Shown: one piece after another, positions 1 through 64,000 of the stretch
Numbering within the stretch: position 1 is the first letter of the stretch
Layout of the letters: each line of letters opens with the position of its first letter
Assembly: GCA_965204755.1 (NCBI GenBank)
Contig: OZ242011.1
Span: forward strand, 1,984,001 to 2,048,000
Direction: 5' to 3'
Source: Candidatus Marinacidobacterium sp.
Lineage (GTDB): Bacteria; Acidobacteriota; Vicinamibacteria; Marinacidobacterales; Marinacidobacteraceae
DNA: 64,000 bases
Notes under the pieces: model-generated
The model's input: only the letters and a program-made list of their open reading frames with translations
Told to the model about the DNA's origin: nothing
Databases searched by the model: none
Position numbers and translations under genes: made by a program

Positions 1-1
1 A

Positions 2-553
2 GTGGAGGAACTGCTGCACGCCCCCGACCCGGCGACCGCGCGCGGGAAACGCGACCTCGCCATCCTGGAGTTGCTCTACGGGACCGGGGTGCGCGTCTCC
101 GAACTCGTCGGGCTCGACCTCACCGACCTGCAGCGGAACTCGCGGATCCTGCGGGTGCTGGGGAAGGGCGGCAAGGAGCGGGTCGCCCCCTTCGGGGAAG
201 TCGCCGCCGACGCCCTCGGCGACTACCTGTCCGCCCGCGGCGAACTCGCCGCCGCCGGCGCCGCGTCGGAAGCGGTCTTCCTGAACGCCCGCGGCGGCCG
301 GCTCACCGACCGCTCGGTGCGCACCATCGTGCGGCGCTACCTGGGCGAGGCGGGAATCGCCCACCTGGCCGGCAAGGCGACCCCCCACACGCTCCGCCAC
401 GCCTTCGCCACCCACCTCCTCGACCGGGGCGCCGACCTGCGCGCCATTCAGGAACTCCTCGGGCACGCCAGTCTGGCGACGACCCAGAAGTACACCCAGG
501 TCTCCACCGCCCGCCTGTTCGAGGTGTACGCCAAGTCCCACCCGAGGACCTGA
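2..553 (+). CDS. xerC: Tyrosine recombinase XerC/XerD (5'-truncated by window edge)
   Basis: RDLAILELLYGTGVRVSEL, GKGGKER, HTLRHAFATHLLDRGADLRAIQELLGHASLATTQKYT: complete R-K-H-R-H-Y catalytic set of chromosomal Xer type. Confidence 0.85.
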   Translation: MEELLHAPDPATARGKRDLAILELLYGTGVRVSELVGLDLTDLQRNSRILRVLGKGGKERVAPFGEVAADALGDYLSARGELAAAGAASEAVFLNARGGRLTDRSVRTIVRRYLGEAGIAHLAGKATPHTLRHAFATHLLDRGADLRAIQELLGHASLATTQKYTQVSTARLFEVYAKSHPRT

Positions 554-559
554 CGCCGG

Positions 560-1837
560 TCAATACCGGGGCGGGGGCCCGAACACCGCCGGGCAGTCGA
601 AGATGCGGCGGTAGCGGGCGACTTCCTCCGGGTCGCCGACGGTCTTGTTGGCGTCGTCGCTGAGTTTCACCAGCGGCCGCCCGTTCGCGCCCACCGGCTT
701 CACCACCAGCGAGTAGGTGGGCAGCCCGCAGTCGTGGGTGAGGTTCGTCCCCCACCCGAACGAGACCCCGATGCGCCCGCGGAATCGCCGGTGGAGCGCG
801 ACCAGGTCCTCCACGCGGAGCCCGTCGCTGAAGACCAGTGTCTTCGCGGCGGCGTCCACTCCCCGGTCGCGGTACCAGCGGAGCGCGCGTTCCCCGAAAG
901 CCGCCGGGTCGCCGGAGTCGTGGCGGACGCCGCGGAACCGGGCGGCGCGGGCCGCGTCCACCTCGCGGAAGTAGGACTCCGAACCCCAGGTGTCCGTGAG
1001 GAAGACGGAATACGGCGCCCCGTAGTCGTCCCGCCAGGCGTCGGCCGTCTCGAGGAACGACGCCGCGACGGCCTCGTCCGAATCCGCCCCGAGCGCCGCT
1101 CCCACCATGAAGACTTCGTGGGCGACCGTCCCCACCGGGGCGAGACCGTGGCGGAACGCGGAAGCCGCCGCCGAAGTCCCGACGAACTGCCCCGGCAGCG
1201 CCTCCGCCAGCCGCTCCTCGACTTCCTGCTGCCATTCCCGCGAGAACCGCCGCCGCGTGCCGAACGAGGCGAAGCGGACTCCGGGCTCCCCCCGCAGGAC
1301 CTCGATCTTCCGCGCCAGGTTCTCCCGGCCGGCGGCGAGCGCCTCCCGCTCCGCCCCGGCGCCCCCGGCGGCGAGCGCGGCGCGGACGAGGAGTTCGCTG
1401 AGCGTGGAGAGGAACAGCGTCTCCCAGAGAATCCCCTCCGCCCAACCGGCCTCGACCTCGAGCCGGAACCCGCCCCCCTCCACCGCCAACTCGAACGGCG
1501 GCAGCCGCAGCCGCGAGAGGAACGACAGGAAGTCCTCGCCGAAGAGCGCCCCTCCGCCGAGGTTCCGCAGGTAGTCGAGTTCCTCCGGGCGGAACGAGAG
1601 CCCCCGCACCCCTTCGAGCGCGTCCCGGAACTCCTCCGCCGGCAGCAGCGCCGCCAGGTTCGCGTCCCGGTCGCGGCAGATCAGCCGGTAGCGGACGCTC
1701 ACCGCGGGATGCCGCCGGAAGACGAACTGCCCCATCGTGAACTTGTAGAAGTCCACATCGAGGAGGGAGGCGACCGGAGGGGCCGCCCCCGGCCGGCGCG
1801 TCGTCAGGCGCGTCGTCAGGCGGGGAAGCCGGGCCAC
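560..1837 (-). CDS. pncB: Nicotinate phosphoribosyltransferase
   Basis: SLLDVDFYKFTMGQ, FGTRRRFS, GTVAHE, GVRHDSGDP, FSDGL, FGWGTNLT, VKLSD motifs. Confidence 0.93.
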   Translation of the reverse strand: MARLPRLTTRLTTRRPGAAPPVASLLDVDFYKFTMGQFVFRRHPAVSVRYRLICRDRDANLAALLPAEEFRDALEGVRGLSFRPEELDYLRNLGGGALFGEDFLSFLSRLRLPPFELAVEGGGFRLEVEAGWAEGILWETLFLSTLSELLVRAALAAGGAGAEREALAAGRENLARKIEVLRGEPGVRFASFGTRRRFSREWQQEVEERLAEALPGQFVGTSAAASAFRHGLAPVGTVAHEVFMVGAALGADSDEAVAASFLETADAWRDDYGAPYSVFLTDTWGSESYFREVDAARAARFRGVRHDSGDPAAFGERALRWYRDRGVDAAAKTLVFSDGLRVEDLVALHRRFRGRIGVSFGWGTNLTHDCGLPTYSLVVKPVGANGRPLVKLSDDANKTVGDPEEVARYRRIFDCPAVFGPPPRY

Positions 1838-62013: not shown

Positions 62014-63135
62014 ATGGCGGATCGGCAACTCCTCCCGGACTCTCCCGAGGAACCCCCCGGACTCGACCGGATCCGCGGGTGGCTTCGCCGGCCGCGCCCC
62101 CGGCTGCGGGCGGTCTGGCTCTGGTTGCGCTGGCTCGGTCGGGGAATCGCCGGCGGCGCGGGCTGGGTCGGCCGGAACGCGCTGCCGGCGGCGCGGGGCG
62201 TGGGCCGGATCGCCGCCGGCGGAGCGAGGGTGGCGCGCGCCGCCGCGCACATCGGCCGGAGCGCCGGGAAGGTCGGCGCGAGTCTGGGCGAGATGGGGAG
62301 CGGGATGAGCGCCGCCGGCGGCCGGTTCGGGCGGATCGGTTCGGCGCTCTCGAACGCCGGCGGGCGCGTGCGCCGGTTCGGCCGGGGACTCCGCCGCACC
62401 GGCCGGGGCGCCGCCGAAGGCCTCGACAGCGTGTCCGTCCTGGGGCGTCACCTCGAATCCGACGCCCCCCTCGGCCCCCCGCCCGCGGAGGAACTCCCGC
62501 CCCCGGCGCCCGAGGAACCGGAGAGCGGGTCGCCGCCCGTCGAACCGCCGCGGACGCCGCGCACCCGGAAGACCGCGAGTTCCGCGACCGCCTCTTCCGC
62601 CCCGCCGCCGACCCCGCCCGAACCGGCGCAACCCGAACCGCCTGCGGAAGCGGATCGGCCCGCGAAGCCGGCCGCCGGCGCCGCCCGGAAGGCCGCCGCG
62701 AAGCGGAAGCGGAAGCGGTCTTCGCCGCCGCCCGCCCCCACGCCGGCGAAGGAGACCGACGCCCCGCCGAAGGCGAGAGACGAACCGCCGAAGGCGAGGG
62801 ACGAACCGCCGAAGAAGAGCGACGCCGCGCCGAAGGCGCCGCCCGAAACCCCGCCCTCCGACGCCGTGCCGGACGCGCTGCCCGAAGCCTTGCGAGCCCG
62901 CATCGCGGCCCTCGGCAAACGGCCCCGCAAGCAGGCGCTCCGGTCCCTCATCCTGGACATCTGCCGCGTCCGCGAGTGGACGACCGCCACCGAACTGGCC
63001 GCCATCCTCGGGGTGGGCCGGCGGTCGCTCTCCACCCGCCACATCGCCCCGATGGCCGACGCCGGCCTCCTCGAACGGCGCTACCCCGACAACCCCACCA
63101 ACCCCGCCCAGGCCTACCGCGCCCCCGCCGCGTGA
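62014..63135 (+). CDS. Protein with Gly/Arg amphipathic N-terminus, Pro/Ala/Lys linker and C-terminal winged-HTH
   Basis: C-term LILDICRVREWTTATELAAILG..RHIAPMADAGLLERRYPDNPTNPAQAYR resembles the wHTH tail of Fic/AlbA-RecG-like proteins. Confidence 0.7.
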   Translation: MADRQLLPDSPEEPPGLDRIRGWLRRPRPRLRAVWLWLRWLGRGIAGGAGWVGRNALPAARGVGRIAAGGARVARAAAHIGRSAGKVGASLGEMGSGMSAAGGRFGRIGSALSNAGGRVRRFGRGLRRTGRGAAEGLDSVSVLGRHLESDAPLGPPPAEELPPPAPEEPESGSPPVEPPRTPRTRKTASSATASSAPPPTPPEPAQPEPPAEADRPAKPAAGAARKAAAKRKRKRSSPPPAPTPAKETDAPPKARDEPPKARDEPPKKSDAAPKAPPETPPSDAVPDALPEALRARIAALGKRPRKQALRSLILDICRVREWTTATELAAILGVGRRSLSTRHIAPMADAGLLERRYPDNPTNPAQAYRAPAA

Positions 63136-63728
63136 ACCCCCCTCCCGGCCCCGTCCGTCCCCGCCCCGCGTCCGCCGCGCGAGCCCTGCCGCCCCGGCTC
63201 ACCAAGTGGCAGGTCGCCGTCGCCGCCCTCTACCGCCTGCGCGGCGCCGTCGTCCGCCGAGACAGCGAGGACATCGCGCTCGAATGTTTCGAGTTGGCCC
63301 CCCGCCGGTTCGGCTGGCGATCCCATCCCCAGTTGGCGCCGGCCCGCGCCGCCCTCCGCGCCGCGCGCCGCTCCGCCCTCATCTCCGGCGACCACGCCGG
63401 CTGGCTGCTGACCCCCGCCGGCGTTTCCTGGTGCGAAGCCCACTTGCCGGAAGCGAAGCCGCGGCGCCGGCTGCGCGGCTGGTCCGCGCTGGAACGGCGC
63501 GAAGCCGAAGCGTTGCGCCGCCTGCTGCGCCAGCCCCTCCATACCTGCTGGAAGTCCGGGCAGCGCGCGCCCACGCTGCCGGAAGTGGCCCACACCCTCG
63601 GTTACACCGCCGACACCCCGGTCGCCGCCGTGCTACGCCGCCTGGACGACCTGTCCGCCCTCGCCCGATTCGCCGACCTCTCCGAAGTCCGGCGCTACCT
63701 GGACTGGCTCCGAAGCGGCGCCGCCTGA
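63132..63728 (+). CDS. Hypothetical winged-helix-like protein
   Basis: VAALYRLRG..SEDIALECFELAPRRFGW..GWLLTPAG; GTGA-coupled. Confidence 0.6.
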   Translation: MNPPPGPVRPRPASAARALPPRLTKWQVAVAALYRLRGAVVRRDSEDIALECFELAPRRFGWRSHPQLAPARAALRAARRSALISGDHAGWLLTPAGVSWCEAHLPEAKPRRRLRGWSALERREAEALRRLLRQPLHTCWKSGQRAPTLPEVAHTLGYTADTPVAAVLRRLDDLSALARFADLSEVRRYLDWLRSGAA

Positions 63729-63750
63729 AGTCCCGGCGGCCGCCTGCTGG

Positions 63751-64000
63751 TCAGGTTCGGACCCACCGGTACACGCACTTGCGGATCTCCCGTCGGCCGA
63801 ACCGCCCCATCTGCTGGCTGGCGTTTCCCTTGCCGCGCGGCAGGACGCGGATGCTTTCGCAGGCGAAGCCGACCGTTTCGGCGAAGTCGGAGAGGATCAG
63901 GTCCACCGGCGCTTCTTCGCCGTGGTACTGGACATTGTCGTTGACCATCGCGACGACGCCGCCCGACCGGACGACGCGGGACAGTTCGCAGATGACGACC
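63751..64000 (-). CDS. C-terminus of a site-specific amino-DNA methyltransferase (possibly N4-C, AvaI/BsoBI-type)
   Basis: ELSRVVRSGGVVAMVNDNVQYHGEEAPVDLILSDFAE..GKGNASQQMG..RKCVY; runs off the window edge. Confidence 0.6.
   Translation of the reverse strand, partial: VVICELSRVVRSGGVVAMVNDNVQYHGEEAPVDLILSDFAETVGFACESIRVLPRGKGNASQQMGRFGRREIRKCVYRWVRT

Follow-up and report, generated by a model that had tools for sequence, protein, structure and literature searches.

Prokaryotic genomes reportedly avoid the sites of their own restriction enzymes, as described by Gelfand and Koonin in 1997 and by Rocha and colleagues in 2001. The present analysis concerns a 64,000-nucleotide stretch of Candidatus Marinacidobacterium sp. 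(the window; positions 1984001-2048000 of contig OZ242011.1, G+C 71.1%), in which two palindromic tetranucleotides, AGCT and ACGT, are nearly absent. The genome containing the window, G000, is a single contig of 3,975,858 bases. In the sections of Rusinov et al. (2015; PMC4687349) used here, no systems except those of orthodox type II restriction-modification (R-M) cause avoidance of their own site, and the avoidance grows with the residence time of the system and can outlive it. G000 resembles these cases in that palindromic words fall far below Markov expectation, in a lineage-specific manner common to relatives, and the loss may have outlasted the enzyme. It differs in having two 4-mers at ~0.04 of expectation genome-wide and at ~0.01 in the main codon frames, with no cognate pair assigned.

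Two further cases involve the same words. In Helicobacter pylori, ACGT, the word of M.Hpy99XI, is strongly under-represented and is exchanged mostly with ATGT/ACAT, mostly silently owing to the reading frame (Commun Biol 2023, PMC10423294, in the sections used here). The word, the replacements and their silence are the same in G000; however, H. pylori has a known 5-methylcytosine (m5C) methyltransferase and allows strain-level ancestral reconstruction, and G000 is depleted also in the frames where a C-to-T change is not silent and has lost AGCT as well. Pandoraviruses show a near-complete, clade-specific loss of AGCT from GC-rich megabase genomes with varied replacements, and the portions of Poirot et al. 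(bioRxiv 10.1101/712018) drawn on here identify neither an R-M system nor DNA methyltransferase candidates. These are eukaryotic viruses, whereas G000 is a bacterium with dozens of methyltransferases; it has lost ACGT too, and AGCT persists in its rRNA and tRNA as well as in arrays of repeats.

In E. coli, very short patch (VSP) repair and Dcm reportedly shape oligonucleotide abundance, as found by Bhagwat and McClelland and by Merkl and colleagues, both in 1992. G000 likewise pairs m5C methyltransferase genes with Vsr, and its CTAG is low (0.13 of expectation). VSP repair is said to enrich the methylated word and to deplete its T-containing neighbours; AGCT and ACGT in G000 behave in the reverse manner.

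Tetranucleotide expectations were taken from maximal-order Markov models of the window and of the genome. By exhaustive search, the window holds 13 AGCT where 129.0 are expected (observed/expected ratio, O/E, 0.10), 10 of them inside one repeat array, and 3 ACGT where 114.3 are expected (0.03). Genome-wide the counts are 332/7448 for AGCT (0.045) and 265/7148 for ACGT (0.037), the lowest two of all 256 tetranucleotides, followed by CTAG; a given word is missing altogether from 266 of the 398 10-kb bins. The preliminary description of the window, drawn up by eye, had reported the loss and had proposed O/E ratios as a check: the loss is stronger than stated, extends over the genome, and neither ratio is near 1. 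Its surviving sites outside the array were exact for AGCT (26096, 52965 and 58100) and for two ACGT (23014 and 59929), but a third ACGT, at 29831, had been missed. Among the words that it called common, GATC (360/383), TCGA (511/409) and TGCA (71/78) are indeed ordinary in the window, but GTAC is mildly low (80/138).

The depletion reaches beyond the core genome. A defence island lying between two tRNA genes contains 1 AGCT against 52.3 expected and 2 ACGT against 61.6; the window outside the island, with the array excluded, contains 2 against 74.5 and 1 against 53.9. The island is thus as depleted as the core, as the preliminary description had claimed. Across the 20 hexamer classes NAGCTN and NACGTN no exemption by flanking context was found: 16 of the 20 stand at 0.010-0.088 of expectation, and the exceptions are two classes (four hexamers) that occur in the arrays and in the tRNA D-arm. 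The loss is no general trait of GC-rich DNA, since O/E below 0.2 is rare in loci from other genomes (1 of 259 for AGCT, 3 of 234 for ACGT, counting the loci in which 20 or more copies are expected).

Codon-level tests were made on 1872 genes amounting to 69% of the genome, called conservatively (at least 100 aa; G+C at the third codon position, GC3, above 0.78; GC3 > GC1 > GC2) and stripped of their first 20 codons, with 20 within-gene shuffles of synonymous codons as the expectation. With a dot marking the codon boundary, AGCT is reduced to 21/1271 (observed/expected) in frame 1 (AGC·T) and 38/4461 in frame 2 (xAG·CTx), and ACGT to 18/1357 in frame 1 (ACG·T) and 47/3123 in frame 2 (xAC·GTx). 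Escape in frame 3 is possible solely through word positions 1 and 4 or through an amino-acid change; here xxA·GCT stands at 16/254 (0.063 of expectation) and xxA·CGT at 19/235 (0.081), control words in the same frame ranging from 0.73 to 2.27. Both words, which are of the restriction-site type, are thus strongly under-represented, by Markov expectation (0.037-0.045) and against synonymous shuffles (0.009-0.081), irrespective of reading frame or flanks.

Codon choice is overridden almost completely, and ~14,000 expected sites are cut to ~600. The spellings singled out in the preliminary description (Glu, Lys or Gln before Leu; Asp, Asn, His or Tyr before Val) hold over all 1872 genes. Asp before Val is written GAT in 1739 of 1761 cases (99%), against 4-10% before other codons starting with G, and the T-ending codons of Asp, Asn, His and Tyr reach 98.7-99.2% before Val, against 2-11% before those other codons. 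Of 3246 Glu codons before a CTN Leu codon, 3231 are GAA, and the A-ending codons of Glu, Lys and Gln make up 98.6-99.5% there; Leu following xAG is TTG in 97.5%, as compared to 2-8% elsewhere. Ala is written GCT in 0.3% of cases after an A-ending codon and in 3-12% after other bases; Arg CGT falls to 0.4% after A and is otherwise 3.5-9%.

We favour, with moderate confidence, the reading that selection has acted for a long time against AGCT and ACGT as words in the lineage of G000 and its sole same-genus genome, G001, most likely exerted by two separate orthodox type II R-M specificities with 4-bp sites, one AluI-type and one MaeII/HpyCH4IV-type; restriction enzymes are the most likely selective agent. 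With ~7000 sites of each word, occasional missed methylation would lead to self-cutting, so that each site would bear a tiny cost and would be replaced by whichever synonymous spelling exists. Sites would survive only under sequence constraint (rRNA, tRNA, the repeated 14-mer array) or in recently arrived DNA. The pattern fits the published framework: two independent classical 4-bp palindromes, lost in a lineage-specific way, independently of frame and flanks, and surviving under constraint. A log ratio of expected to observed of 4-5 would plausibly mean that the scaled selection coefficient at each site is of similar magnitude, which is our own estimate; it would be small enough to suit large bacterial populations. 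The loss would then be an unusually deep case, judged against the loci compared here, of the well-known avoidance of restriction sites. The cognate enzymes would be either among the uncharacterised methyltransferase loci of G000 or already lost. Of the two causes named in the preliminary description, m5C methylation and restriction avoidance, the latter fits better, and the depletion of the whole genome, island included, supports the long-term shaping proposed there.

The distribution among relatives is that of an avoidance following lineages. Genomes of the family, order and class were sampled at 20 kb per genome, G001 being pooled over four samples. Both words are reduced in G001 (AGCT 20/138, ACGT 21/117, with 17 of the 21 ACGT coming from a single sample). 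G005, which belongs to a different genus of this family, has lost ACGT only (3/52, with AGCT at 147/158), and G007 is intermediate (ACGT 7/22). The remaining 24 sampled genomes of the family range over 0.47-0.97 for AGCT and 0.70-1.29 for ACGT, and ten at the order or class level over 0.83-1.32. The AGCT and ACGT losses are two separate lineage-specific purges. One degenerate ASST enzyme behind both is ruled out, because AGGT/ACCT is not depleted (genome-wide O/E 1.25) and G005 has lost ACGT alone; the same two facts suggest separate causes for the two words. In a quick single-gene (enolase) tree with weak forks, a non-depleted genus adjoins that of the window (Shimodaira-Hasegawa-like approximate likelihood ratio test, SH-aLRT, 85) and G005 lies elsewhere; ACGT may have been lost either once or twice in the window's genus and G005. 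ACGT is also missing from two genomes that are unrelated to G000, namely G061 and the incomplete metagenome-assembled genome (MAG) G062 (0/37).

The main rival, and the principal reading of the preliminary description, is mutation pressure alone: AluI-like and MaeII-like C5 methyltransferases would modify the words, and m5C deamination would erode the sites without any selection on the word. We consider it unlikely, although a number of observations agree with it. G000 has six C5 methyltransferase genes (PF00145) and six Vsr matches, one with a stop and beside an insertion sequence (IS), so that the search proposed in that description did find both families. The replacement words are in excess, as predicted there, with Markov O/E of 1.56 for AGTT/AACT and 1.66 for ATGT/ACAT genome-wide. 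The codon-aware excess (AGT·T 1286/333, xAG·TTx 4590/2572, xAA·CTx 4949/2055, xAT·GTx 3883/807) roughly equals the deficit, and the depletion is deepest in the frames where C-to-T is silent. Furthermore, MaeII methylation is m5C (PMC10113651), and ACGT in H. pylori provides a precedent, in the sections of PMC10423294 referred to above.

These replacement words do not separate selection from mutation, since in the frames xAG·CTx and xAC·GTx the transition product is the sole synonymous spelling. Three contexts do discriminate, and all of them oppose a specific C-to-T signature: i) Thr before T is the one context that offers a choice at the same base. ACG falls there to 0.5%, with ACC at 75.5% and ACT at 21.6%, but the deamination product ACA remains at 2.5%, the same as in other contexts (ACA·T 99 vs 64 expected, with ~1340 ACG·T missing); ii) in frame 3, where C-to-T converts Ala to Val or Thr and Arg to Cys or His, both words nevertheless show a 12-16-fold depletion. 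Sites do not persist where the transition is intolerable, and mutation pressure would have to act there via amino-acid changes; the purge went through the last base of the neighbouring codon, or through GCC/GCG and CGC/CGG; and iii) the C-to-T products that alter the protein are hardly or not at all in excess (AAC·T 1892/1866, xAC·ATx 3713/3331). The excess is thus confined to the frames in which the product is the only synonymous spelling and does not go beyond what other causes give. The escapes accord with what the genetic code allows and with codon preference rather than with C-to-T, and the "5mC-deamination signature" of the preliminary description is not borne out. Replacement words that look like C-to-T products are no proof by themselves of methyl-cytosine decay because the code forces them, a caution that extends to other genomes.

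Other evidence points the same way. E. coli Vsr reverses m5C-deamination damage, and in G000 a member of this family adjoins five of the six C5 methyltransferases. CCWGG, the presumed target of a resident EcoRII-type m5C system with Vsr, stands at O/E 0.94. Relatives of three C5 systems of G000 (B, C and E, described below) occur in 118 foreign loci without AGCT or ACGT depletion, and the specificity regions are conserved for C. The ACGT-free G062 has no PF00145 match, and ratios of 0.01-0.02 would need a rate of loss 50-100 times the rate of gain. The persistence of AGCT in rRNA and tRNA is expected under every model. Deamination of m5C may have supplied many single C-to-T changes, but it was neither needed nor sufficient.

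Several points weigh against restriction avoidance as well. The methylation by AluI, MaeII and Hpy99XI is m5C, and the ACGT loss of H. pylori is ascribed mainly to deamination (PMC10423294, in the sections used here). The frame in which C-to-T is nonsynonymous is 4-9 times less depleted, which fits a mutational contribution too, and the selection is suggested by equilibrium composition only. No R-M pair could be assigned to AGCT or ACGT: none of seven candidate gene sets passed the association test across genomes described below, and many of the 46 methyltransferase-domain matches are uncharacterised. G000 and G001 share only three C5 types (B, C and E), none of which predicts depletion elsewhere.

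Apart from the C5 genes, G000 has 26 PF01555, 14 PF02384 and 6 PF02086 matches, including several type I and type III systems, as well as defence ATPases. C5 methyltransferases number three in G001 and one in G005, and are absent from G007. None of the six PF00145 genes of G000 could be assigned as AluI-like or MaeII-like. Among the neighbours of 26 methyltransferase loci, searched with Pfam, NCBIfam and PADLOC, the only endonucleases found were type II enzymes of the EcoRII, HgiDII/BbrUII and MamI types and type III restriction subunits. The sequence GATNNNNATC, the site of MamI, is not avoided (1082 copies vs 302-443 at other spacings); the MamI family matches a protein in locus L281.

Association with depletion was examined by fetching the relatives of a gene from other genomes with ~20 kb of flank and computing AGCT and ACGT O/E there. 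All six C5 systems of G000 (A to F) have relatives in non-depleted genomes. The relatives of B, C and E lie in 11, 42 and 65 informative foreign loci, respectively, none of which is depleted. System B (methyltransferase, 742-aa protein, 296-aa protein, DUF6339 and Vsr; 72% identical in G001) was found at 13 loci, among which the six others with a 62-67% identical methyltransferase have AGCT at 0.78-1.52 and ACGT at 0.76-1.04; it was rejected. System C (627-aa protein, 345-aa protein, methyltransferase and Vsr) was found at 46 loci, of which 42 are informative outside G005 and none is depleted. Its methyltransferase domain is 78% identical in the ACGT-free G005 and 42% identical in G001, and the specificity region between the catalytic motifs is conserved in depleted and non-depleted hosts; C was rejected too. 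These two arrangements are conserved multi-gene m5C cassettes that occur in many MAGs of several phyla, represented in G000 at L014 (1254001-1266000; methyltransferase/742-aa/296-aa/DUF6339/Vsr) and L015 (1516001-1525000; 627-aa/345-aa/methyltransferase with a 330-aa N-terminal extension/Vsr). An IS transposase lies in L014 between Vsr and a second, stop-bearing Vsr copy.

System E was rejected for AGCT and ACGT, none of the 65 loci analysed out of 68 being below 0.44 for either word. Its methyltransferase overlaps a 653-aa HATPase_c_3 partner (G000:C1:2392933-2396051; L017 4933-8051), for which NCBIfam gives a match to its "BbrUII/HgiDII family restriction enzyme" entry (E 1e-104, 351 bits, under the 550 cut-off). 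BbrUII/HgiDII-type enzymes such as HgiDII presumably cut GTCGAC, and the family match thus makes system E account for GTCGAC, not for AGCT or ACGT. GTCGAC stands at O/E 0.20 genome-wide with no excess of GTTGAC/GTCAAC (1.02). It may therefore serve as an internal precedent for the same avoidance mechanism, with an identifiable candidate enzyme. Relatives of the system E methyltransferase turn up frequently among MAGs bearing the titles Poribacteria, Latescibacterota and Dehalococcoidia.

The remaining C5 systems fared no better. System A, with the EcoRII-type endonuclease, was rejected on account of the CCWGG ratio given above and of similar high-scoring PF00145 matches in the non-depleted G003, G006, G012, G022 and G023. 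System D (Vsr, methyltransferase and a 330-aa protein) is not supported by 56 metagenome loci, mostly 31-36% identical, which show no consistent loss of AGCT or ACGT; some have lost GGCC or GATC, and one has AGCT at 5/43. Its 330-aa protein has 1202 unnamed relatives, of which P0053, 51% identical, is tentatively placed at the non-depleted locus L298. The methyltransferase of system F is 61% identical to one in the non-depleted G011. Neither D nor F was found in G001. Shared C5 enzymes do not link G000 to the unrelated depleted genomes, those of G061 and G063 being at most 39% identical to its own and G062 having none.

A D12 methyltransferase with a winged helix-turn-helix (wHTH)-HNH nuclease was also rejected: of 401 other Acidobacteriota genomes searched, 6 have the adjacent pair, and ACGT stands at 0.81-1.24 in each of the 12 samples taken from them. 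The pair is present in G005 and G007; G000 and G001 have the D12 methyltransferase alone. In G005 (L416, 6250-7991) and G007 (L419; nuclease match in two pieces) it occupies a hotspot-like insertion gap between radical-SAM/DUF2344 and DUF885 genes, which holds a different PF01555 gene in G000 (L276, 2861001-2870000). In G000 and G001 the D12 gene is located at another place, next to Vsr, and its orientation differs between the two. Several open reading frames (ORFs) were discarded as endonucleases: two ORFs next to the D12 gene, of 324 and 176 aa, encode membrane and secreted proteins; a 326-aa ORF beside a G005 methyltransferase matches 28 of 28 family genomes, 27 with internal stops, and is a shadow of pseudopilin genes; and a 289-aa ORF in L266 is low-complexity junk. 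The recent mutation spectrum was sought in multi-copy IS elements, where two small families gave 0-2 sites each, too few to use.

A still less probable alternative is a non-classical pressure on the words, either a process at the DNA or RNA level such as might operate in the AGCT-free pandoraviruses, or selection against methylation itself through the cell's own modification-dependent nucleases or a cost to expression. It is consistent with the failure of the seven candidate gene sets to yield a cognate system and with the pandoravirus loss, for which the portions of bioRxiv 10.1101/712018 used here give no R-M explanation. In the sections of Rusinov et al. (PMC4687349) used here, unfavourable methylation is named as a possible selective cause. 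GmrSD-type proteins, encoded both within the window and next to the GTCGAC system, would also suit it. On the other hand, two independent palindromic 4-mers, both of them known restriction sites, have been lost separately across genera (ACGT only in G005), as restriction predicts, and G000 is extremely rich in R-M genes. A cause at the RNA level is improbable, given that the purge affects both strands and extends into the space between called genes: once conservative genes, RNA genes and arrays are set aside, the remaining 31% of the genome holds only 153 AGCT and 172 ACGT. We would give little credence to a purge kept up by something unlike recognizable AluI/MaeII restriction, be it two new endonuclease families in the unannotated methyltransferase neighbourhoods or a pandoravirus-like process other than restriction. 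On that reading a purged genome could acquire more enzymes of the same specificity almost free of charge, and such a ratchet would account for depths near 0.01.

A sequencing artefact can practically be dismissed: some long-read chemistries do make systematic consensus errors at methylated motifs, and the replacement words are the C-to-T variants that miscalled AGCT and ACGT would give, but a blind error would hit both strands, whereas AGT·T and xAT·GTx are in excess and their nonsynonymous counterparts AAC·T and xAC·ATx hardly or not at all, escape routes other than C-to-T are used too, the pattern recurs in two further independent assemblies, and AGCT is retained in tRNAs and, mostly at positions shared with relatives, in 23S rRNA.

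If restriction avoidance is the correct reading, this sponge-type acidobacterial lineage would possess, or would once have possessed, restriction of the AluI and MaeII types, and incoming DNA, defence islands included, would be filtered or reshaped accordingly. The genome would also illustrate, as a clean natural case, the lengths to which selection can go against a four-letter word in a cell.

The surviving sites lie where change is costly or the DNA is new. The 332 genomic AGCT comprise 70 (21%) in nine repeat arrays, 27 in 23 of the 67 tRNA genes, 16 in 23S rRNA, 66 in conservative genes and 153 elsewhere. The aligned 23S rRNA genes of the family relatives G001, G004, G005 and G008 have 15-17 AGCT; 14 positions are common to all five genomes, and one site was gained in G000. 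Small patches of near-normal density look like recent arrivals, for example locus L266 with five AGCT and two ACGT inside 2 kb.

The nine arrays of the genome are bipartite and built of a unit AATTGTGTATAGCT, with 100 units in all. Each consists of two clusters of 4-9 direct repeats AATTGTGTATAG(C/G)T, spaced at 20-31 bp, and the clusters are 150-235 bp apart. Besides the array in the window (Table 1), there are eight in G000 at 357.9, 756.0, 1207.9, 1659.9, 2895.4, 2970.8, 3119.1 and 3494.2 kb. The genes beside them are unrelated from array to array, the array 12-mer is absent from the searched G001, G005, G007 and G008, and the array in the window has no match in Rfam. The arrays could be iteron-like or regulator-binding. 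On the improbable reading of a purge kept up by something unlike recognizable AluI/MaeII restriction, these nine species-specific AATTGTGTATAGCT arrays would be the last dense AGCT targets and could serve as methylation-sensing control regions.

Table 1. Features of the 64-kb window and the AGCT and ACGT sites remaining in it
Feature	Positions	Strand	Remarks
Whole window	1-64000		Near-absence of AGCT and ACGT, both strands
tRNA genes flanking the island	5483-5553 and 33580-33666
Defence island between two tRNA genes	5554-33579		From tRNA search and Pfam; as depleted as the core
Island content			DUF5131, SNF2/NOV_C helicase, GmrSD_N, Schlafen AlbA_2, DUF1156, several AAA_21/AAA_15 ATPases
Residual ACGT	23014-23017		In AAA_21 ATPase ORF 21837-23438
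Residual AGCT	26096-26099		In AAA_15 ATPase ORF fragment 25252-26142
Residual ACGT	29831-29834		Within 1384-aa ORF 29331-33485
tRNA-Ala	52899-52971	+	Retains AGCT at 52965; among the 23 of 67 tRNA genes keeping AGCT
Residual AGCT	58100-58103		Gap between called ORFs
Residual ACGT	59929-59932		Between ORFs
Bipartite array	61492-61918	+	12 units AATTGTGTATAG(C/G)T; ten AGCT at 61509-61877

A tRNA-Sec gene (53018-53111) directly follows the tRNA-Ala gene of the window. Other words avoided genome-wide are GTAGAC/GTCTAC (0.18), CTATAG (0.14) and CTAG (0.13). Loss of a single 4-mer was also seen in other genomes (L020, L067, L325, L326, L355, L358 and L363): ACGT is completely missing from L020 (0/40) and L067 (0/37), and GGCC has an O/E of 0.00 in four MAG loci, three from Pyrinomonadaceae and one from Acidobacteriota, and stands at 0/64 in a metagenome contig (L363). 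G000 also contains giant internal tandem repeats at 850-875, 3532-3545, 211-219 and 540-548 kb, 80-90% identical and up to ~24 kb long, which are presumably giant repetitive proteins.

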